From NCBI GenBank assembly GCA_965204235.1, contig OZ241979.1:2744907-2808906 (forward strand): a DNA stretch of 64,000 bases, read 5' to 3'. The notes beneath the pieces are model-generated. The model had not been told where the DNA came from, made no database searches, and saw only the letters and a list, made by a program, of their open reading frames with translations. How positions within the stretch are numbered: the stretch's first letter is position 1; every line of letters starts with the position of its first letter. This stretch comes from an uncultured Candidatus Binatia bacterium. Its GTDB lineage: Bacteria; Desulfobacterota; Binatia; UBA9968; JAJDTQ01. The translations under genes were made by a program, and so were the position numbers. Positions 49,695 through 59,772 of the stretch are shown here, one piece after another.

Positions 49695-52498
49695 GCAAAG
49701 TGAGAGTGCATCAACTGGCCAAGGACCTCAAGATCGAGCCCAGCGATCTCATCGCCCAACTCGAGAAGATCCGGGTGCGCGGCAAGAAACCGCAGAGCTC
49801 CCTCGACGAGTCGGAAGTCGAGGCCGTCAAGGCGGCCGTCGCCGCGATGGAGAAGCCGAAGGTTTCGGTGGGCGAAGAGAAGGTCGTGGTGGACCGCACC
49901 ATCACCGCGGAGGACCAGGACATGGGCGAGGTCCAGGCCCATGAGAAGATCGTCGAACGCCGGGTTCGGGCCAACGTCATCCGGCGCCGCACGAGCCGGG
50001 TCGAGTTGGTCACTCGCAAACCCATCCAGCCGGTCGTGCCTCCGCCCCAGGAGGAAGCGGAAGAGCCCGCGGTCGAGGCCGCGGCGGTCGAGACGCCTGC
50101 GAGCCCCGAGGCAGGGTCCCGGGAAACCGCGCCTTCGGCGGTTCCGGCGGCGGCCCAGGCCACCGAGGCCGAGCAGGTCGAGGCGCCGGAGCGGCCCCCG
50201 GATGCGGCGCAGCCGACCCCGGCGGCGCCGCCCGAGGCTGCTCGGCCCGAAGCCGCGGGCGCTCGGGAAGAAGCGCAGACCGCGCAACCCCCGGAGGCGC
50301 CGGCGCCCGTGGGCGAAGGCGCCGAGGGCAGGGCCGCGGCGGGCGACGCCAACGGCGCCGCGGCGCCGGCGCAGCCCGGGTCGGCGACGGGTCCCCGGAT
50401 CCTCGGTCGCATCGACCTGAACAGGAGGCCTGCGCCCGCGCCCGCGAAACCTGCCGCGGCCCCCGGAGAGCGGGCCGCCCGCGGTCCCGGCGCACAGCCG
50501 CCCGCGGAACCGGAAGGACCGGAGAAGACCGGCAAGGGCGGCAAGGCCAGGAAACGGGTCATCCGGAAACAGGAGGTCATCGAGCTCAAGGAACGCGAGT
50601 TCCGTTCGCCCCGGGGCCGCATGCTCCGGAAGAAGCGCGCCTTGCCGGGGAAGGAGCAGAAGAAGACCGAGATCACGGTGCCGAAGGCCAGCAAGCGGGT
50701 GGTCCGCGTGGCGGAAGTGGTCACCGTGGGCGACATGGCCAGGGCCATGGGCGTCAAGGCGGGCGAGGTCATCAAGAAGCTCATGGGTCTCGGCATGATG
50801 ACCACCATCAACCAGGTGCTCGATTTCGATACGGCGACGCTGGTGGCCAACGAGTTCGATTACCAGGTGGAGAACGTCGCGTTCGACGTGGAGACGGCGC
50901 TCCAGGACCAGCACGAGGTCGCGGACCCGGCGGAGGCGTTGGAGCCGAGACCGCCGGTGGTCACCATCATGGGACACGTGGACCACGGCAAGACGTCGTT
51001 GCTCGACGCCATCCGCAGCACCAACGTGACCGGCGGCGAGGCAGGGGGCATTACCCAGCACATCGGCGCCTACCACGTGCCGTTGGGCGACAGGGGGGTG
51101 ACCTTCCTCGATACTCCCGGACACGAGGCGTTCACCGCCATGCGCGCAAGGGGGGCCAAGGCCACCGACATCGTGGTGCTGGTGGTGGCGGCTGACGACG
51201 GCGTCATGCCGCAGACCATCGAGGCGGTGGACCACGCCCGGGCGGCCGAAGTGCCGATCATCGTGGCGGTGAACAAGATCGACCGCCCGGACGCGGACCC
51301 GGAGCGGGTCCAGCGCGGCTTGGCCGACCACGGTCTGGCGCCCGAGGCGTGGGGCGGCGACACGATCTTCGTTCCGGTCTCGGCCGTGACCCGCGAAGGG
51401 TTGCCCGGCCTGCTGGAGATGCTGCTGCTGCAGGCGGACCTGCTGGACCTCAAGGCCAACCCCGACAAGCTGGCCCGGGGCTTGGTGGTGGAAGCCAAGC
51501 TGGAGCGGGGCCGCGGCCCGGTTTCCACCGTGCTGGTCCAGGAAGGAAGGCTGAAGGTGGGCGATCCCATCTTCGCCGGCCCCCATCACGGGCGCGTACG
51601 GGCCATGATCGACGACCAGGGCCGCAAGGTCGAGGCCGCGACCCCCTCCATTCCGGTGGAGATCCTGGGGCTTCAGGGAGTGCCGCAGGCCGGTGAGGCG
51701 TTCTCGGCGCTCACGGACGAGGCCAAGGCGAGGCAGATCGCCGAGTACCGCGGGACGCAGCAACGCGAGGCCGAGTTGGCGAAGACCAGCAAGGTGTCCC
51801 TGGAGGAGTTCTACGACCAGGTCCGGGCAAGCGACGTCAAGGAGCTGCGCGTGGTGGTGAAGGGCGACGTCCACGGCTCGGTGGAGGCCCTCAACGAAGC
51901 GGTGGCGCGGCTGTCCACGGATGAAGTCAAGCTCCGGGTCATCCACGGCTCGGTGGGCGGCGTCAGCGAGAGCGACGTCCTGCTGGCCAGCGCGTCCAAC
52001 GCCATCGTCATCGGCTTCAACGTGCGTCCCGAGCCCAAGGCCACGAGCCTCGCGTCGCAGCAGGGCGTGGACGTGCGGCTCTACACCATCATCTACGACG
52101 TCATCGACGATATCCGCTCGGCCATGGAAGGGCTGCTGGAGCCGGTCTTCCGCGAGGAGTTCCACGCCCGGATACAGGTGCGGGAAGTCTTCCACATCCG
52201 CGGGGTGGGCGCCATCGCCGGCTGTGCGGTCACCGACGGCAAGATCCAGCGTTCCAGCATGATACGCCTCGTGCGGGACCAGGTGGTGGTGCACGAAGGC
52301 AGGCTGGCCAGCCTGAAGCGGTTCAAGGACGACGTGCGCGAAGTGGGCACGGGTTACGAGTGCGGCATCGCCATCGACGGCTACCAGGACGTGAAGGTGG
52401 GCGACGTCATCGAGGGCTTCGAGAAGGTCCCCGTGGCCCGGGGACAGGCGCGCCCGGACGGCGGAGGCGCGGCGCAGCTCTCGGCCGCGGACCGGTAG
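49691..52498 (+). CDS. infB: Translation initiation factor IF-2
   Basis: [14 protein letters not shown]-terminus, a Pro/Ala/Glu-rich linker and a GTPase domain ([21 protein letters not shown]). Confidence 0.97.
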
Positions 52499-52591
52499 CA
52501 GGGCGCCTGCTTCGATGCCCCGCTCGTCCGGGCGCACCGCCGGCCCTCCGGGTCCGTGACGGCTTGCGGCGCGGTTCGATTCGAGCAGCGC

Positions 52592-52879
52592 ATGGTGATC
52601 GGCGTTCTCAAGGTGGTCCTGATCCTGCCGGAGAACCATTCCCTGAAGGGGAAGAGGTCGGTGCTGCGCAAGGTCCGGTCCCGGGTCTCCCATCGGTTCA
52701 ACGTCTCGGTAACGGAGTGCGGCGACCAGGACCTCTGGCAGCGGGCGCTGCTGGGTTTCGGGTTGGTGGGCAGCGACGCCAGGGTGGTGGAAGCGACCTT
52801 GCGGCAGGTGGTGGAGTTCGTGGACGGTTTGGGGCTGGCCGAGCTGGGGGAGTCGGACATCGACGTATTCAGGCATTAG
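52592..52879 (+). CDS. DUF503 (YlxP-like) protein
   Basis: VIGVLKVVLILPENHSLKGKRSV pattern and its position between infB and rbfA. Confidence 0.8.
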   Translation: MVIGVLKVVLILPENHSLKGKRSVLRKVRSRVSHRFNVSVTECGDQDLWQRALLGFGLVGSDARVVEATLRQVVEFVDGLGLAELGESDIDVFRH

Positions 52880-53313: not shown

Positions 53314-54234
53314 ATGCAACTGGTCCGGAGCGGCATCCTGCTGGTGGACAAGCCGGAGGGTCCGTCCTCCGCCCGGGTGGTGGCCGCGGCGAAGCGGATC
53401 ACCGGCGCGCGGAAGGTCGGCCACCTGGGGACCCTGGACCCGTTCGCTTCCGGCCTGTTGCCGCTGGCGGTCAACGAGGGGACCAAGGTCGCGCAGCACT
53501 TCCTGGACGCGGACAAGGGGTACGCCGGCGTCATCGAGCTGGGGGCGGAAACCGATACCCAGGACCGCACCGGCAAGCTGCTGCGCCGGGGGGAAGCGCC
53601 GGTCCTGGGGCCGCGGGACATGGAGTCCCTGCGCCGGCAGTTCAGCGGCCTCCTGCGCCAGGTGCCGCCCATGTACTCCGCCCTCAAGAAGGAGGGGACC
53701 CGGCTCTACGAATATGCCCGCAAGGGGCAGGAGGTGAGCCGGGAGGCCCGGGACGTCCGGGTCGAGTTGACCCGTCTGGAGCAGGCGGGCGGCGGGCAGT
53801 TGGAGTTCGAGTTGACCTGTTCCAAGGGCACGTACGTGCGCACCCTGGCCGCGGACATGGGCCGGTCCCTGGGGTGCGGCGCCTACCTGAGCCGTCTTCG
53901 CAGGGTGGCCTCCGGCCCCTTCCGGGTCGCCGACGCGGTGACCCTGGACGACCTCGGTGCGCTTCCGAACCCCGACTCGGTCCCGCTGGTGCCGTTGAAC
54001 GACGCCCTGGGCCACCTGCGGTGCGCCGTGCTGGGCCCGGACGCCGCGGACCGCCTCAGACAGGGCCTCCAGGGCGCCCTCGCGGACGTGGACGCGCCCG
54101 CGGCCGGGGAGACGACCCGCAGGGTGGTGGACCGGCAAGGCGATCTGGTGGCGCTGATCGGCTGGGAAGAGGCCGCGGAAGCGTGGCGGACCCTTCGGGT
54201 GTTCCACCGTCCCCGGATGGGATCACATGTCTAA
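53314..54234 (+). CDS. truB: tRNA pseudouridine-55 synthase
   Basis: GILLVDKP.G.SS and VGH.GTLDP.ASGLLP motifs. Confidence 0.95.
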   Translation: MQLVRSGILLVDKPEGPSSARVVAAAKRITGARKVGHLGTLDPFASGLLPLAVNEGTKVAQHFLDADKGYAGVIELGAETDTQDRTGKLLRRGEAPVLGPRDMESLRRQFSGLLRQVPPMYSALKKEGTRLYEYARKGQEVSREARDVRVELTRLEQAGGGQLEFELTCSKGTYVRTLAADMGRSLGCGAYLSRLRRVASGPFRVADAVTLDDLGALPNPDSVPLVPLNDALGHLRCAVLGPDAADRLRQGLQGALADVDAPAAGETTRRVVDRQGDLVALIGWEEAAEAWRTLRVFHRPRMGSHV

Positions 54235-56063
54235 CACCGGGGTTCGTTTGCTGCGGCCGCCATGAAACGCGGAGTTCGTGATCGGTCTCCCAGAATCAAC
54301 GCCTGGATTTCGTCAAGGTCTTCTCCGAACGCTTTCGCGGGCGCCTCGTAGTAGCGCCAGCAACTGAACGTCGAAACCCGCTCGACGTCTGACGCTTCGC
54401 GCGCTTGGCGGAGGAAGTCGAGCGCCGCCCGCATATCGCCGGTCGCCCAGTGGGCGACCGCCATGCACTGAAGATAGTTCGCGTCGTCACGTTCCCGATG
54501 CGACCGGTCCAGTTCGACGACTCGCGCAAACGGCTCTGCAACGACTTCCCCGGTCGCTCCCCATGTGGCCATCCCGAAGTTGAAAGCGTCGCCGATGTCC
54601 ATGTCCTCGACGTCACGCCCCCCGCGGCCAAGCAGTTCGGCCGCGTCGGAGGATTTGCCGGCTCCAAGGTAACGCAACGCGAGCACGCTTCTCGTCGATG
54701 CACGTCTTTCCGGCGACAGTCCCTGGTCTTCGACCATCGGCTCCAGAACGGAGGCAGCGACTTCGACTTCCCTCGGGGATCCTTGAAGTTCATGTGCAAG
54801 CCAGATGCGCTCTGCGGCGTCCAGCGACGTGACCGCCATCGACTGCGCGACGTCCCCGGTTTCACCAGACAGCGCCAACCGCACCGCCTCCCTGACCAGC
54901 GGCGGAGGCAGGCTGTCTGCCTGCAGGACCTGCCATGCGTCGTCGCAGGCGGCGGTCTCATCATGGTCATCGGCGCGCAGACGGGCCCGTTCCAGATACA
55001 CTTCCGGCTCGTCGCACCCGGCCTCGATCGCCCGGTCGAACAGCGACGCAGCACGATCCAGCCGTCGGTCGTGTTCGTAGAACATCCCCAGGTTGAACAG
55101 CACCTCTCCATCGTCCGGATGCGCGTCCTCGATTTTCTGGAGCTTGTTGACCATTTCTTCCGGAGATTCATGTATCCGCGGCCGGCGCCATTGGTGGCTC
55201 GCCTGCCGGATGTAGTCCAGCGCTCCGTCGCGATCCTCAAGGTTGCGTGCGACGATTTCGCGAACGACATCGTGGTATTCCTTGGCGAGGCGGCTTTTCG
55301 GACGATCCTTCGTGAACACCACCTGGTTCAGCAGCGACAGGCTGTCGTACCGGTGCACGACCGCCGGCTCCCGCGTGAAGCCAAGCCGCTGCCGGAAAGC
55401 GTCGATCTTGTCTCCGAGGATCCTGTCCTCGTCGTCCAGATCCGGTACGTTGGACATCACGAAATGAAGCTCGATCTCCTTCTTGCGCGGTCCGCCGGTT
55501 TCGGATCGAATGTCCTGAACGACCTTGTGGAGCCCCTGCAGGTTCTGTTCGTTGGGAAAGAACAGGATCGCTACCGCATCGGGAAGCTGCCGGGTACAGA
55601 TGCCGCCGGTGTCGGTGTATCCGGTACGTGAATCGATCAAAACGTAGTCCGGCTCGAGGACGCGTTTCCATTGCTCCCTGATGTCCTCGAACAACAGATA
55701 GCCATCGTGCCGGTCGTACAGTTCGCCCCAGTCGATCCGACCGAGGTTCGTCGCGTACATCGACTGCCGCGCGCCGGACGGCATGACCCACAGCCTGCCG
55801 TCGCCGACGCCGGGCGCTTCGCCGATGAATTCCTCGATCGCCGGGGCGCGCCTGGAGTCGAGGTACTCGAGGACGAACTCGATGATTCCCGGAATCTTCT
55901 TTCGGGGACGCAGGACGTCGAAGGTATCCAGTCCGGGCGCCTCCAGATCGAAATCGACCGCGAGGACGCGGCGGCCTCTGGTCGCGAGATCTACCGCCGC
56001 GTTCACCAGCGCCATCGTCCGCCCGACGCCACCCTTGAACGAGTAGAAGGTAGTGACGTACAT
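54231..56063 (-). CDS. ParA/MinD-like ATPase with KGGVGRT deviant Walker A fused to a ~330-aa TPR-like helical repeat domain
   Basis: FYSFKGGVGRTMALVN...VLAVDFDLEAPGL...VLIDSRTG. The C-terminal half is helical repeats (LFNLGMFYEHDRRLDRAASLFDRAIEAG...). Confidence 0.8.
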   Translation of the reverse strand: MYVTTFYSFKGGVGRTMALVNAAVDLATRGRRVLAVDFDLEAPGLDTFDVLRPRKKIPGIIEFVLEYLDSRRAPAIEEFIGEAPGVGDGRLWVMPSGARQSMYATNLGRIDWGELYDRHDGYLLFEDIREQWKRVLEPDYVLIDSRTGYTDTGGICTRQLPDAVAILFFPNEQNLQGLHKVVQDIRSETGGPRKKEIELHFVMSNVPDLDDEDRILGDKIDAFRQRLGFTREPAVVHRYDSLSLLNQVVFTKDRPKSRLAKEYHDVVREIVARNLEDRDGALDYIRQASHQWRRPRIHESPEEMVNKLQKIEDAHPDDGEVLFNLGMFYEHDRRLDRAASLFDRAIEAGCDEPEVYLERARLRADDHDETAACDDAWQVLQADSLPPPLVREAVRLALSGETGDVAQSMAVTSLDAAERIWLAHELQGSPREVEVAASVLEPMVEDQGLSPERRASTRSVLALRYLGAGKSSDAAELLGRGGRDVEDMDIGDAFNFGMATWGATGEVVAEPFARVVELDRSHRERDDANYLQCMAVAHWATGDMRAALDFLRQAREASDVERVSTFSCWRYYEAPAKAFGEDLDEIQALILGDRSRTPRFMAAAANEPRC

Positions 56064-56067
56064 CCCG

Positions 56068-56628
56068 TCAACCGGCCAACCGCAAGTCGAAGCGCTCCTG
56101 TGCCCGCCGTATCTCGTCCGACACCTCCAGCACCCGGAATCGACCCTCGCCGATACCCGGGGCCGCCGGCGTCCGCCGTTTGGCCGCCACGAAACTCAGG
56201 AGCCTTTGCATGTTCTCCGGCCGCGCCAGCAGTCGAAGGTACCGATCGTTTGCGTGCGTCTGGACGGTGAGACCGTTTTCCCAACGGTTCAGCGACGCCT
56301 CGCCGATGCCCGTGACGTGGGCGAACCTCGCACGGGTCATCCGATGGCCGATTCTGACGCGCCGGATTTCGTCAGGGGACAGGACGCCTAGGTGCCTGCA
56401 GATCGCCTGGTGTTCCAGGCTCTCGCCGACGTGGTCGAGGTACTCGAATTCGCAGGCGCCGCAACGCCGCACCGGCAGGTCCACCGTCAACTCGACGGCG
56501 TCCTCTCCTGCGCCGTAGTTGAATGAATGACGGTGCGAGAGTGTCGTGATTCCGTCCCCGCCGCACTGCGGACACGTGAGTCTGCTGCCGGTCACGGGCT
56601 GCAACCGGGGTGAGCGTCGTGATTTCAT
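56068..56628 (-). CDS. mqsA: MqsA-family antitoxin-like protein (Zn ribbon plus XRE HTH)
   Basis: CPQCGG...CGACEFEY zinc ribbon followed by SPDEIRRVR...TRARFAHVTGIGEASLNRWENG. GGGAG SD lies upstream of ATG 56628. Confidence 0.75.
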   Translation of the reverse strand: MKSRRSPRLQPVTGSRLTCPQCGGDGITTLSHRHSFNYGAGEDAVELTVDLPVRRCGACEFEYLDHVGESLEHQAICRHLGVLSPDEIRRVRIGHRMTRARFAHVTGIGEASLNRWENGLTVQTHANDRYLRLLARPENMQRLLSFVAAKRRTPAAPGIGEGRFRVLEVSDEIRRAQERFDLRLAG

Positions 56629-56642
56629 GCGTGGGCTCCCTG

Positions 56643-56999
56643 CTAGTCTTCCGGCCTGGAGTAGTGAAAGCTGCGTCCGATGATCCGTCCAGACCCGAGT
56701 TGCAGCTTGATGTAGATCGGCGGCTGCCCATCCTCGACGTCTATCTCCATGACGTAACCGGTGGCGCCAGGCGGTTGGCGCAATGTGATGACCTCTACCG
56801 GGTGTCCGCTTTCCAGATGCGACGCGATGAACTCCCAAGCCGTTGTCTTCGTGAAGTAAAGATCGAGCGTTCCCGCCGGATTGCGAACCTCTTGAGGCCG
56901 CCAGTCGGTCGGCCGGTTCGGGCTGAACTCGTCGCTGCGGGCGCGGCTTCGGCGTGCGAGAACAACCAGTTGACGCCTGATCGACTCGTCGATGCTCAC
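56643..56999 (-). CDS. MqsR-like toxin candidate (toxin-first gene order)
   Basis: 118 aa. The C-terminal IYIKLQLGSGRIIGRSFH resembles the MqsR YLKITV....LIVSFK end. It sits 14 nt upstream of the MqsA-like gene. Confidence 0.5.
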   Translation of the reverse strand: MSIDESIRRQLVVLARRSRARSDEFSPNRPTDWRPQEVRNPAGTLDLYFTKTTAWEFIASHLESGHPVEVITLRQPPGATGYVMEIDVEDGQPPIYIKLQLGSGRIIGRSFHYSRPED

Positions 57000-57044
57000 G
57001 GAATTTGCCGATCCCTGCGCGCCAGCAAACCCTTATAGTAATAG

Positions 57045-57054
57045 ATCATATGAT
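57045..57054. promoter_or_regulatory. Perfect palindrome ATCATATGAT in an AT-rich tract ~45 nt upstream of the toxin start (candidate operator)
   Basis: Read directly. Only a positional argument supports it. Confidence 0.3.
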
Positions 57055-57330
57055 TCAATAGCCTCCGTGTCAAGACCGGAAATAAACCATCTGGTCTTTT
57101 GATCGACTGCTCCCTTCACTCCGTTGCCCTGGTTTGCCGCAATGGGCCTCGCGTATAGGGGCTAGCCAACTGCTCATCCTGAATCTACCACATTAGGTCT
57201 TCGTCTCCTCCCTGCCTTCCTCTCTGGTCGATGGTGGATTTGGGACCTGTCCACCGCTTTACACGGACGGGGCCGGTGTGCTAGAACCGGGTGAGAAACC
57301 AGAGGAAAAGGGAGAAAGCAAAGGGTACAG

Positions 57331-57600
57331 ATGGAATCAGCTCGGGAGCAGACCAGCGAGACGATCAGGAATTTCAGACTCCACGACACCGACACCGGTT
57401 CGCCTGAGGTGCAGGTCGCCATCCACAGCCGCCGCATCGCTTACCTGACAGAGCATCTGAGGACTCACAGGAAGGACCATCACACGCGGATGGGCCTGCT
57501 CAAGCTCGTCGGAAAGAGGCGCCGGCTTCTCGATTATCTCAAGAAGAGGGACGTTCAGAGGTACCAGACTCTGATCCAGCGGCTGGGCATCCGCAGATAG
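57331..57600 (+). CDS. rpsO: 30S ribosomal protein S15
   Basis: [31 protein letters not shown]. Confidence 0.97.
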
Positions 57601-57669
57601 CGGCCCTGCCTCCGGCTCCCCCTTCCCGCGCTCTTCTCTTCAGCCCCCACTGCCCTCGAGGGTACAACC

Positions 57670-59772
57670 ATGCACACGAAGATCGAGTTGGATTATTGCG
57701 GCCGCCCCCTGTGCGTCGATCTGGGCAAGGTCGCCAAGCAGGCCGACGGCGCCGCCCTGGTCCGTTTCGGCGAGACCGTCGTCCTCGCAACCGCGGTGGC
57801 CTCGAAAGAGGTCCGGGAAGAGATCGACTTCTTCCCGCTGACCGTCGATTACCAGGAAAAGACGTTCGCCGCAGGCCGGATCCCGGGCGGGTTCTTCAAA
57901 CGGGAGGGACGGCCGTCGGAGAAGGAAATCCTGACGTGCCGCCTGATCGACCGCTCCATTCGCCCGCTGTTCGCGGGCGGGCTCAAGGCCGAGACCCAGG
58001 TCATCGTCACCGTGCTCTCCGCGGACGGGGAGAACGACACGGACGTGGTGGCCATGCTCGCGGCGTCGTTGGCGCTGGAAGTGTCCGACATTCCTTTCCA
58101 AGGCCCTCTGGCGGGCGTCCGGGTGGGCAGGATCGACGGCGCGTGGGTCATGAACCCGCTTCTGGCCGAGGTTCCCCGGAGCGACGTCAACATCTTCCTC
58201 TCGGGCACCCGGGACGGCCTCGTGATGGTGGAGGGCGGCGCCGCGGTGGTGCCGGAGGAGGGGGTGCTGGACGCGCTGTTCCAAGGGCACCAGGCGATCC
58301 AGCCGCTCATCGACCTGCAGGAGAACCTCAAGTCGCAGCTTGGCAAGCCCAAGCGGGCCGCGCCCCAGGAGGAGAAGGACGAGGCGCTGAGGGCGCGGGT
58401 CCGGGAACTCGCCGAGGAGAAGCTCGGGGAGGCGGTGCGCATCGCGGACAAGAAGCAGCGCAACGCCCGCATTGACGAGGTCGGGGTCGAGGCGCTCACC
58501 GCGGGCGCGGAGGAGTTCCCCGGGCGCGAACGGGAGGTCAAGGGGGCTTTCAGGGAGATCGAGAAGTTGCAGCTTCGGGACCTGGTGCTGCGTCAGCGCA
58601 AGCGCATCGACGGACGCGGGCTCAAGGACGTGCGTCCCATCACCTGCGAGGTCAACCTGCTGCCCCGGGCCCACGGCTCGGCCCTGTTCACTCGCGGCGA
58701 GACCCAGGCCCTGGTGGTTTCCACCCTCGGCACCGCCGCAGACGTGCAGCGCATCGACGCGCTCAACGGCGAGCAGCACAAGAAGTTCATGCTGCACTAC
58801 AACTTCCCGCCCTTCAGCACCGGAGAGGTCAAGTTCCTCCGGGGTCCGGGCCGCCGGGAGATCGGCCACGGCGCCCTGGCCGAGCGGGCGCTGACGCCGG
58901 TGCTGCCCGACGCGGATGCGTTCCCCTACACCCTGCGCGTGGTCTCCGAGATCCTGGAGTCCAACGGCTCCAGCTCCATGGCCAGCGTGTGCGGCGGCTC
59001 CCTGTCCCTCATGGACGCGGGCGTGCCCACCAGGGCGCCGGTGGCGGGCATCGCCATGGGCCTCATCAAGGACGGCGACGAGGTGCGGGTGCTCACGGAC
59101 ATACTCGGGGACGAGGACCACCTGGGCGACATGGACTTCAAGGTGGCCGGCACCCGTGAAGGGATCACCGCGCTGCAGATGGACATCAAGATCAGCGGCG
59201 TGGACCGCGAGATCATGCAGGAAGCCCTCTACCAGGCCCGTGAGGGGCGGCTGCACATCCTCGACGTCATGGACCGGACCCTGTCGGAGACGCGCAAGGA
59301 GGTCTCCCGCCACGCGCCCCGGATCACTACCCTGAAGGTGCGGCCGGACAAGATCCGCGACATCATCGGACCCGGAGGCAAGGTAATCCGGGGCATCGTC
59401 GATGCCACCGGCACGAAGATCGACGTGCAGGACGACGGCACCGTGACGGTGGCGTCCACCGACGAGGCGGGCAGCAGGAAGGCCATCGACATGATCCAGG
59501 GGATCGTGGCGGAAGTGGAGGTCGGCCGGATCTACAAGGGGACGGTGCGGCGCGTGATGGACTTCGGCGCGTTCGTGGAGATCCTTCCCGGCACCGACGG
59601 ACTGGTCCATATCTCGCAGATCGCCGACGACCACGTGCGCCAGGTGAGGGACGTGCTGAACGAGGGCGACGAGTTGATGGTGAAGGTCCTGGACGTGGAC
59701 CGGCAGGGCAAGATCCGGCTCAGCCGCAAGGAGGCCCTGAAGGAGCAGCAGCAGTCCTCCAGGCAGGCATAG
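57670..59772 (+). CDS. pnp: Polyribonucleotide nucleotidyltransferase (PNPase)
   Basis: Two RNase PH domains plus KH and S1 domains (GDMDFKVAGT, YKGTVRRVMDFGAFVEILPG). Confidence 0.97.
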   Translation: MHTKIELDYCGRPLCVDLGKVAKQADGAALVRFGETVVLATAVASKEVREEIDFFPLTVDYQEKTFAAGRIPGGFFKREGRPSEKEILTCRLIDRSIRPLFAGGLKAETQVIVTVLSADGENDTDVVAMLAASLALEVSDIPFQGPLAGVRVGRIDGAWVMNPLLAEVPRSDVNIFLSGTRDGLVMVEGGAAVVPEEGVLDALFQGHQAIQPLIDLQENLKSQLGKPKRAAPQEEKDEALRARVRELAEEKLGEAVRIADKKQRNARIDEVGVEALTAGAEEFPGREREVKGAFREIEKLQLRDLVLRQRKRIDGRGLKDVRPITCEVNLLPRAHGSALFTRGETQALVVSTLGTAADVQRIDALNGEQHKKFMLHYNFPPFSTGEVKFLRGPGRREIGHGALAERALTPVLPDADAFPYTLRVVSEILESNGSSSMASVCGGSLSLMDAGVPTRAPVAGIAMGLIKDGDEVRVLTDILGDEDHLGDMDFKVAGTREGITALQMDIKISGVDREIMQEALYQAREGRLHILDVMDRTLSETRKEVSRHAPRITTLKVRPDKIRDIIGPGGKVIRGIVDATGTKIDVQDDGTVTVASTDEAGSRKAIDMIQGIVAEVEVGRIYKGTVRRVMDFGAFVEILPGTDGLVHISQIADDHVRQVRDVLNEGDELMVKVLDVDRQGKIRLSRKEALKEQQQSSRQA

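Follow-up and report, generated by a model that had tools for sequence, protein, structure and literature searches.

A three-gene cassette interrupts the spacer between truB and rpsO in an uncultured Candidatus Binatia bacterium, within a 64-kb stretch of contig OZ241979.1 (assembly GCA_965204235.1) that is called the window here; coordinates follow its numbering unless another record is named. The cassette genes, named A, B and C in the order of transcription, encode an unclassified protein of 118 amino acids (aa), a divergent relative of the MqsA antitoxins and an ATPase with a TPR tail, respectively. Comparison of genomic neighbourhoods indicates that the trio is a recurrent, tightly linked module, and with a rough probability of one half its three genes form a self-contained conflict module, toxin-antitoxin plus regulator in type, that moves horizontally. 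The elements that appear to be new in such a tripartite toxin-antitoxin (TA) or defence-candidate module are the KGGVGR ATPase-TPR third component and the unclassified first component. No description of KGGVGR, of PDC-M28 or of an MqsA plus ParA-like trio was found in the literature searched, in line with the first-pass annotation of the window, whose author knew of no described function for the trio.

The cassette is laid out as follows.

54208..57252, minus strand: inserted cassette, ~3.05 kb between truB and rpsO, delimited by the loss of blastn homology and a drop in G+C
56643..56999, minus strand: gene A, 118 aa, GTG start, putative toxin, ending ...IYIKLQLGSGRIIGRSFHYSRPED
56068..56628, minus strand: gene B, 186 aa, ATG start, MqsA-type, putative antitoxin and autorepressor
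54231..56063, minus strand: gene C, 610 aa, ATG start, KGGVGR ATPase-TPR protein, beginning MYVTTFYSFKGGVGRTMALVN
54231..54234, both strands: convergent stop overlap, truB TAA at 54232-54234 (plus) and C TAG at 54233-54231 (minus)

The three minus-strand genes, their junctions of 14 and 4 nucleotides (nt) and the overlap of the truB and C stop codons had been described in the first-pass annotation and are read directly from the sequence. The 14 nt run from the TAG of A to the ATG of B, which is preceded by GGGAG, and the 4 nt from the TGA of B to the ATG of C; such tight junctions suggest translational coupling of A, B and C. The same annotation had supposed an insertion into the truB-rpsO spacer, and the comparison with related genomes bears this out. 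In three relatives (L149-L151), whose TruB proteins are 78-81% identical to that of the window, truB and rpsO are 80 nt apart, and in blastn comparisons of the empty sites of L150 and L151 with the window homology is interrupted from ~54207 to ~57253. Therefore, ~3.05 kb were inserted, including a new 3' end of truB, and the three-gene cassette is an insertion into the spacer. The G+C content of the insert is 0.59-0.66 versus about 0.68-0.72 in the flanks, and the same insertion is present in two close relatives (L085 and L086), in which C is 93% identical. Neither terminal inverted or direct repeats nor a target-site duplication were found at the insertion boundaries; a 7-nt TCCACCG seen by eye near both junctions was treated as chance or microhomology. 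No terminator-like site or structure was found between truB and C, and no Rfam family in 53500-58000.

The recurrence of the trio was surveyed in two collections. A genome scan with a profile of A, covering one genome per GTDB species, yielded 122 confirmed loci, and in the best 80 of them, which were kept (L005-L084), A, B and C lie on the same strand and in the same order in 78, one of which is partly degraded; of the two exceptions one is cut by a contig end and the other is degraded. A scan of JGI soil, peat and freshwater metagenomes with a seven-sequence query reached distant A members, 36-65% identical to the query. The order A-B-C was found in 40 of the 48 informative metagenome loci, meaning those that extend far enough to show the presence or absence of C, and the other eight carry A-B without C. 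The idea that a KGGVGR ATPase recurrently follows an MqsA-like gene, raised on first inspection of the window, is borne out in both collections, and taken together the order is fixed in more than 115 loci. Clustering of the open reading frames (ORFs) that flank the 80 genome loci revealed no fourth conserved gene. The flanks, inspected in few loci, vary between genomes, and most copies are chromosomal and lie in unrelated contexts.

The carriers span at least six phylum-level groups and include metagenome-assembled genomes (MAGs) of Binatia, Acidobacteriota, Gamma- and Alphaproteobacteria, Spirochaetia, Latescibacterota and Entotheonella. Many of them have sponge-related names, and the study labels of the window's relatives, PANK22 and ROBB21, point likewise; judged by these names and study codes, the carriers of the closest cassettes are apparently sponge symbionts. 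Conservation in the cassette peaks in the N-terminal domain of C, which keeps 59-75% identity between phyla; TruB, by comparison, drops to about 55% within Binatia. Cassette proteins from different phyla resemble each other more closely than the TruB proteins of Binatia do, which suggests that the cassette spread by recent inter-phylum transfer within one habitat.

In addition, the trio is found on four plasmids of cultured Rhizobium and Massilia, including Massilia forsythiae GN2-R2 and Rhizobium phaseoli (plasmid pRphaN831c), where RefSeq names the C copies 'ParA family protein' and the B orthologues 'type II TA system antitoxin MqsA family protein'. Four IMG/VR contigs also carry it, and no phage hallmark genes were seen in the flanks of two of them. 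On one contig (UViG_3300038657_000109, L157:1430-5857), a 507-aa ORF just upstream has an N-terminus that looks relaxase-like by eye; instead of a virus, this contig may represent a plasmid or mobilisable element. Decayed copies occur as well: one (L081:7358-9736) is without the B tail and the first ~168 residues of C, and another (L074:7001-7803) has A and a truncated B but no C.

A link between B and C may lie in the C-terminus of B; the parts of B are the following.

56452..56574, minus strand: zinc ribbon of B, C19-x2-C22 (CPQC) ... C56-x2-C59 (CGAC)
56209..56367, minus strand: XRE-type helix-turn-helix (HTH) of B, about aa 88-140
56071..56187, minus strand: C-terminal extension of B, about aa 148-186, proposed C-docking tail, with F180-D-L-R183 at 56091-56080

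B had been called MqsA-like, which holds for its architecture, an N-terminal CxxC...CxxC zinc ribbon followed by an XRE HTH, but not at the curated thresholds, as it scores 53.9 bits against TIGR03830 (1.5e-14, cutoff 61.8) and 23.9 bits against PF15731 (4.8e-5, cutoff 30). By these profiles B is a near-threshold, divergent relative of the MqsA family. The four zinc-ribbon cysteines are at least 95% conserved among 80 B sequences, and the match to the TIGR03831 YgiT finger is weak. The PF01381 (HTH_3) match covers aa 158-206 of the long ORF, corresponding to about aa 88-136 of B, and the closest solved structure to this HTH by sequence is HigA-2. MqsA-type antitoxins pair with several toxin families, including DUF4258 toxins, and an MqsA-type partner therefore requires no MqsR toxin (PMC11980606).

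The length of B beyond the HTH follows the presence of C. With C downstream, the tail has a median length of 39 aa and falls short of 31 aa in just one of 117 B genes, while it measures 12-18 aa in all nine B genes for which C is absent. An extension of roughly 25 aa with F-x-L-R near its end is present only when C follows. Its consensus is ...FRxLxV(T/S)...Q-x3-F-x-L-R-x2-A-COOH, and F-x-L-R occurs in 83 of 111 unique B tails, against a background rate of 0.007 per 30 aa; in 63 of these tails its distance to the C-terminus is exactly 7 aa.

The partner of this tail would be C, which divides into two regions.

55224..56063, minus strand: N-terminal NTPase domain of C, aa 1-280, with the KGGVGRT Walker A variant at 56036-56016
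54231..55223, minus strand: TPR/helical-repeat region of C, aa 281-610 plus stop, the variable part

C is, by its profile matches, a KGGVGR-variant ParA/MinD-type ATPase with a TPR tail, as the first-pass annotation had read from its deviant Walker A motif and helical repeats. It matches NF047398 'KGGVGR-motif variant AAA ATPase' over profile positions 3-189 of 190 (7.7e-49, 166.6 bits, cutoff 90), exceeds the Pfam cutoffs of PF01656 (CbiA) and PF13614 (AAA_31), and its N-terminal domain matches PADLOC PDC-M28B at 9e-34. In the tail, TPR_14 reaches 24.6 bits (cutoff 23.5) and TPR_16, TPR_2, TPR_7 and TPR_12 fall slightly under their cutoffs, with TPR matches at aa 302-375 and 520-560; an nSTAND match has an E of 0.17. 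KGGVGRT is invariant in 79 C N-terminal domains and in a diverse set of ten members, and the motifs TFYSFKGGVGRT, VDFDLEAPG and DYVLIDSRTGxTD are nearly invariant in the 79. The signature lysine K10, D37-F-D39 and the Walker B residue D144 are likewise invariant, and arginine (Arg15) takes the place of the canonical Walker A lysine in all members. Among solved proteins, FleN (the best PDB sequence match, named there as a transcriptional anti-activator), MinD and ParA come nearest, with similarity confined to the first ~60 residues. Conservation in the cassette is lowest in the TPR region, which shows 32-56% identity across loci and is replaced or absent in about nine loci.

Four of the eight two-gene metagenome loci were inspected, three of which lie beside AbiEi/AbiEii and one beside a Type ISP restriction enzyme; by gene content, these neighbourhoods are a defence or TA island context.

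L114:2093-3873, L115, L116 and L098:1665-2612: two-gene A-B loci with a short B, beside AbiEi/AbiEii or the Type ISP enzyme

A plasmid collection contains five orthologues of the C N-terminal domain (at least 46% identity), four of them in trios, and the next-best plasmid matches (at most 36% identity) have other architectures. On plasmid p29362-2 of Polymorphobacter megasporae (L153:3091-5842), a C orthologue with a 49% identical ATPase domain follows a pair unrelated to A-B, namely PADLOC PDC-M06A (76 aa) and PDC-M06B (221 aa). The PDC-M06B protein continues for about 61 residues past its profile match and ends ...HRQGFDLRRPLLAQLTVQ (...HRQGFDLRRP...), so that the 221-aa protein and B have an F-D-L-R tail motif in common, which suggests a docking tag for C that is portable between proteins. 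The 76-aa protein looks HicA-like by eye and has no Pfam match, and HipA-type toxin genes and integrases lie near this C orthologue.

More distant KGGVGR-type ATPases occur with other partners. On a Sinorhizobium plasmid (L154:3667-6193), the ATPase is fused to TIR behind a small upstream gene without a known family, and on a Nostoc plasmid (L155:3183-6295) a small HEPN protein precedes an ATPase fused to an ORC/Cdc6-like AAA, which corresponds to PADLOC PDC-M28A/B/C; a type I hsdR gene adjoins the latter. The early remark that KGGVGR ATPases are a catalogued family with ties to conflict systems fits both NF047398 and these TIR-fused and HEPN-paired paralogues, and MinD/ParA-like domains in conflict systems have been described (PMC7159879).

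Gene A encodes a real, conserved protein, to judge from a family with at least 179 close homologues and 483 clusters at 50% identity, and with the signature residues W33, Y96-x-K98 and G108-R-S-F-H112. The GTG start is shared by the window and close relatives. Two intact copies were left uncalled by the gene finder in metagenome records (L085:9065-9418 and L086:1714-2067), and A is missing from plasmid gene tables (L146:4986-5348 and L147:4989-5348), which are incomplete by design. The window protein matches no profile of Pfam, NCBIfam or PADLOC, neither A nor 59 diverse relatives match Pfam at E<=1, and searches of PDB sequences with two profiles gave no match; one family member matched PBECR3 at E 0.057, which was judged to be noise.

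A had been taken for an MqsR-like protein owing to its C-terminus, and this assignment was not upheld at any level: PF15723 gave no match, hhalign between the A profile and E. coli MqsR (its sequence entered by hand) returned a probability of 0.2%, and PDB and Foldseek searches were negative as well, leaving the C-terminal resemblance without detectable homology behind it. An AlphaFold (AF2) model built on a deeper alignment (pLDDT 94.9, pTM 0.87) has two helices and a four-stranded antiparallel sheet. Foldseek searches of the PDB with two models gave no significant hit, the best for the pLDDT-94.9 model being designed NTF2-like proteins (E 0.038, TM 0.33), and there was no significant neighbour in BFVD. 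An MqsR-like or RelE-superfamily fold found no support, with ParE2, RelK and HP0894 at E 0.3-0.6 and MqsR outside the top 50. The invariant Y-x-K ... G-R-S-F-H residues are of a kind that may belong to a metal-independent RNase.

Expression of the cassette is predicted to depend on a promoter whose -10 box lies in a palindrome.

57045..57073, minus strand: sigma-70-like promoter, TTGACA at 57073-57068, 17-nt spacer, TATGAT at 57050-57045
57045..57054, no strand: proximal putative operator, perfect palindrome ATCATATGAT, 45 nt upstream of the A start
57094..57103, no strand: degenerate distal operator ATCAAAAGAC, one mismatch in the 8-nt core, a weak call

The hexamers match at 11 of 12 positions and form the sole promoter-like site in 53800-57700; on this prediction A, then B, then C are transcribed from one promoter. 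The perfect palindrome, already noticed ~45 nt upstream of A and located at 57054-57045, encloses the -10 hexamer TATGAT and is present in a single copy in the window, one mismatch allowed. At least one palindrome hit arose in 19 of 100 shuffles, which means that a palindrome alone is not improbable; its conservation across loci is what sets it apart, and it is therefore not chance. Across phyla, the 180 nt ahead of A contain its core, TCATATGA, in 67 of the 80 genome loci, at a density of 5.3 per kb versus 0.005 per kb elsewhere in the same loci (about 1.1 Mb of flanks), an enrichment of about 1000-fold. Its matches concentrate at -60..-20 and -120..-80 relative to A. In related loci, the palindromes are usually paired, about 40-60 bp apart on either side of a TTGA-type -35 box, the second cluster being the TCA[AT]ATGA sites at -120..-80, and the family consensus of the distal operator is ATCA(A/T)ATGAT. 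The conserved pair is consistent with a B protein that binds the promoter palindromes and neutralises A.

Taken together, these observations can be arranged into a scheme for the conflict module. B dimers would bind the palindromes and autorepress the operon, and the N-terminal zinc-ribbon domain of B would neutralise A, a growth-arresting toxin, as MqsA neutralises MqsR. C would dock on the F-x-L-R tail of B through its TPR array, its nucleotide-bound dimer or both, and B would then need C for its stability or activity, formally like SecB and the 'chaperone addiction' extension (ChAD) in toxin-antitoxin-chaperone (TAC) systems. An invader protein caught by the variable TPR array, or a change of nucleotide state, could then divert or switch C, upon which B would be lost and A released. 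C would act either as a stabiliser, in the manner of a chaperone, or as a sensor. The closest functional analogue would be the TAC class, including MqsRAC, with an ATPase-TPR protein in place of SecB.

A wider proposal, which is offered tentatively and is less probable than its alternatives taken together, holds that the portable tag (...Q-x3-F-x-L-R...) makes unrelated antitoxins, the MqsA-like B and the second protein of the PDC-M06 pair, depend on a KGGVGR ATPase-TPR protein. This would define a class of 'ATPase-addicted' TA immune modules, in which the ATPase-TPR protein senses invaders and A is a previously unseen toxin fold, and the module of the window's clade would have spread by recent inter-phylum transfer among apparent sponge symbionts.

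Several observations weigh against the conflict-module reading. The role of A as a toxin is drawn entirely from genomic context (gene size, order and coupling, the MqsA-type partner, and the two-gene A-B loci beside AbiE and Type ISP genes), and sequence profiles, the PDB and Foldseek detect no similarity of A to a known toxin or nuclease. B scores under the curated MqsA family cutoffs, and the tail motif outside the MqsA type rests on a single example, that of Polymorphobacter. Every C family member has arginine in place of the Walker A lysine, and the MinD/ParA-like domains of the conflict systems of Kaur et al. are predicted to be inactive (PMC7159879); because of this replacement and that prediction, C may bind nucleotide without hydrolysing it. 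Furthermore, the cassette matches just one component of a PADLOC candidate system, the ATPase of PDC-M28 (B component), its HEPN protein (PDC-M28A) and ORC/Cdc6-like AAA (PDC-M28C) being absent. Finally, the inspected flanks of C-linked copies, from few loci, consist of housekeeping or metabolic genes, and neither A nor the C ATPase domain has a match in GenBank phage records.

Three rival explanations have been weighed, each of which is less well supported than the conflict module. The first, which is unlikely, is a non-toxic regulatory switch with A as a sensor or anti-repressor, B as a repressor and C as a nucleotide-dependent modulator of B, as FleN acts on FleQ, controlling its own expression or a small regulon. 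A without toxin or nuclease homology, FleN among the closest solved relatives of the C N-terminus and a B protein that binds DNA by its domain and has a conserved operator would all suit such a switch. However, the operator is essentially confined to the module promoter, its frequency in the flanks leaving no regulon visible, and a self-regulating cassette that lacks an output is not expected to spread intact across phyla; moreover, A-B pairs without C neighbour AbiE and Type ISP restriction genes, and the order with the small protein first and an MqsA-type partner is typical of TA pairs.

Still less probable is that two unrelated functions travel together, A-B as an ordinary type II TA pair and C as an independent ParA-like/TPR protein, for instance a positioning or scaffolding ATPase. 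The nine loci with A-B and no C, and the Polymorphobacter C orthologue behind a different upstream pair, are what this explanation would predict, but it leaves unexplained why more than 115 loci keep one order and spacing (the B-C gap in the window being 4 nt), why the B extension and its F-x-L-R appear only in the presence of C, why the motif recurs on the unrelated upstream protein of Polymorphobacter, and why the C N-terminal domain is the most conserved part of the cassette. Lastly, a cassette that partitions or stabilises a mobile element, with C as a ParA motor, B as a centromere-binding adaptor on the palindromes and A as an accessory or addiction factor, is highly improbable: C belongs to the ParA/MinD family, some copies lie on plasmids, where C is named accordingly, and type Ib par systems have a small DNA-binding partner with a flexible tail that stimulates the ATPase, but most copies are chromosomal and in unrelated contexts, the one here lying in a 4-Mb chromosome between truB and rpsO, a 23-kb Massilia plasmid has its own small ParA and partitioning determinant, there are just two operator copies and no repeat array, and C combines the Walker A Lys-to-Arg change with a 330-aa TPR tail.

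The insertion has also left its mark on the host gene, as truB of the window now ends in ~9 codons and a stop that the cassette supplies. The native 3' end is replaced (54208-54234), giving a protein of 306 aa that ends ...RVFHRPRMGSHV, versus 301 aa ending ...VFDDRP in the nearest relative. The nearest named relatives of the window TruB belong to 'Deltaproteobacteria' and Candidatus Binatia MAGs. In a relative with a 75% identical TruB, the spacer holds a different 4.4-kb cassette, with a sulfotransferase and two glycosyltransferases, and insertions into the spacer seem to recur in this Binatia clade.

L152:5906-10309, opposite strand: alternative spacer cassette of a Binatia MAG (ERZ25070786 ctg150451l)

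Upstream in the same gene array, a DUF503-type ORF (52556-52879) lies between infB and rbfA, as in relatives, and the Pro/Ala-rich N-terminal region of IF2 (50000-50500) reaches a G+C of up to 0.80.

If the conflict-module reading is true, it would add a third mode by which an extra protein controls a TA pair, beside SecB-type chaperones and retron-type control, the controlling protein here combining a nucleotide switch and a variable repeat sensor. It would also provide a first function for the KGGVGR branch of the ParA/MinD ATPases, which is present in NCBIfam and absent from the literature searched, and would add to the toxin repertoire the A family, with its 483 clusters and neither a Pfam model nor a structural neighbour. 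The A family is probably under-annotated, and the cassette is probably under-counted because gene callers miss A. Near-identical cassettes in at least six phylum-level groups, apparently of sponge symbionts, also mark gene flow in that habitat. The predictions are directly testable in cultured carriers, through the plasmids of Massilia forsythiae and Rhizobium phaseoli.

Among known systems, the TAC class is the most similar. TAC systems, including MqsRAC, have an otherwise canonical antitoxin with a C-terminal extension and a third gene, on which this antitoxin depends, and defend against phage; the extension, ChAD, is unstructured and makes the antitoxin aggregation-prone (PMC9519451). Examples named in that source include MqsRAC, HigBA-SecB of M. 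tuberculosis and CmdTAC (PMC9519451; Bordes et al. 2016 cited there). The cassette resembles them in having three genes in the order toxin, antitoxin and third factor (the first two roles being putative here), an antitoxin of a canonical type, which is MqsA-like in MqsRAC as in B, and a C-terminal antitoxin extension that co-occurs with the third gene, as the B tail does. It differs in the third gene, which encodes a KGGVGR ParA/MinD NTPase-TPR protein without a SecB match instead of a SecB-like chaperone, in A, which belongs to an unclassified family and is not MqsR, HigB or CmdT, and in the extension, which ends in a conserved F-x-L-R, unlike the unstructured, aggregation-prone ChAD.

With E. 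coli MqsR/MqsA, the cassette shares a small first gene ahead of the antitoxin gene, an antitoxin with an N-terminal zinc ribbon and a C-terminal XRE HTH, and palindromic operators in the promoter. The E. coli mqsRA promoter has two palindromic operators, and the operator bound by MqsA is of the ACCT-N-AGGT type, in contrast to the TCATATGA operator of the cassette. Further differences are that A is without MqsR similarity, that B falls under the family cutoff with an HTH nearer to HigA-2, and that a third gene is present.

The N-terminal domain of C is a full-length member of NF047398 and matches PDC-M28B, and PDC-M28 likewise combines a small upstream HEPN protein with a KGGVGR-type ATPase, which makes a small putative RNase beside such an ATPase a common theme. 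The cassette differs from PDC-M28 in that the HEPN and the ORC/Cdc6-like AAA are absent, A and B have no PADLOC match and C carries TPR. As for the STAND/Avs NTPase-TPR proteins, the NTPase of C is of the SIMIBI ParA/MinD class and has no fused effector, the presumed effector acting in trans; what is shared is the layout, with a variable TPR array behind an NTPase switch and diversity concentrated in the repeats. A last comparison is with FleN-FleQ, ParF-ParG and MinD-MinE. FleN and the ParA-type proteins are similar to C over the first ~60 residues only, and C differs from them by its Walker A Lys-to-Arg change and its mobile three-gene context, but in all of these pairs a ParA/MinD ATPase acts on a DNA-binding or other partner protein through a short terminal peptide, which is the kind of contact proposed here between C and the tail of B.

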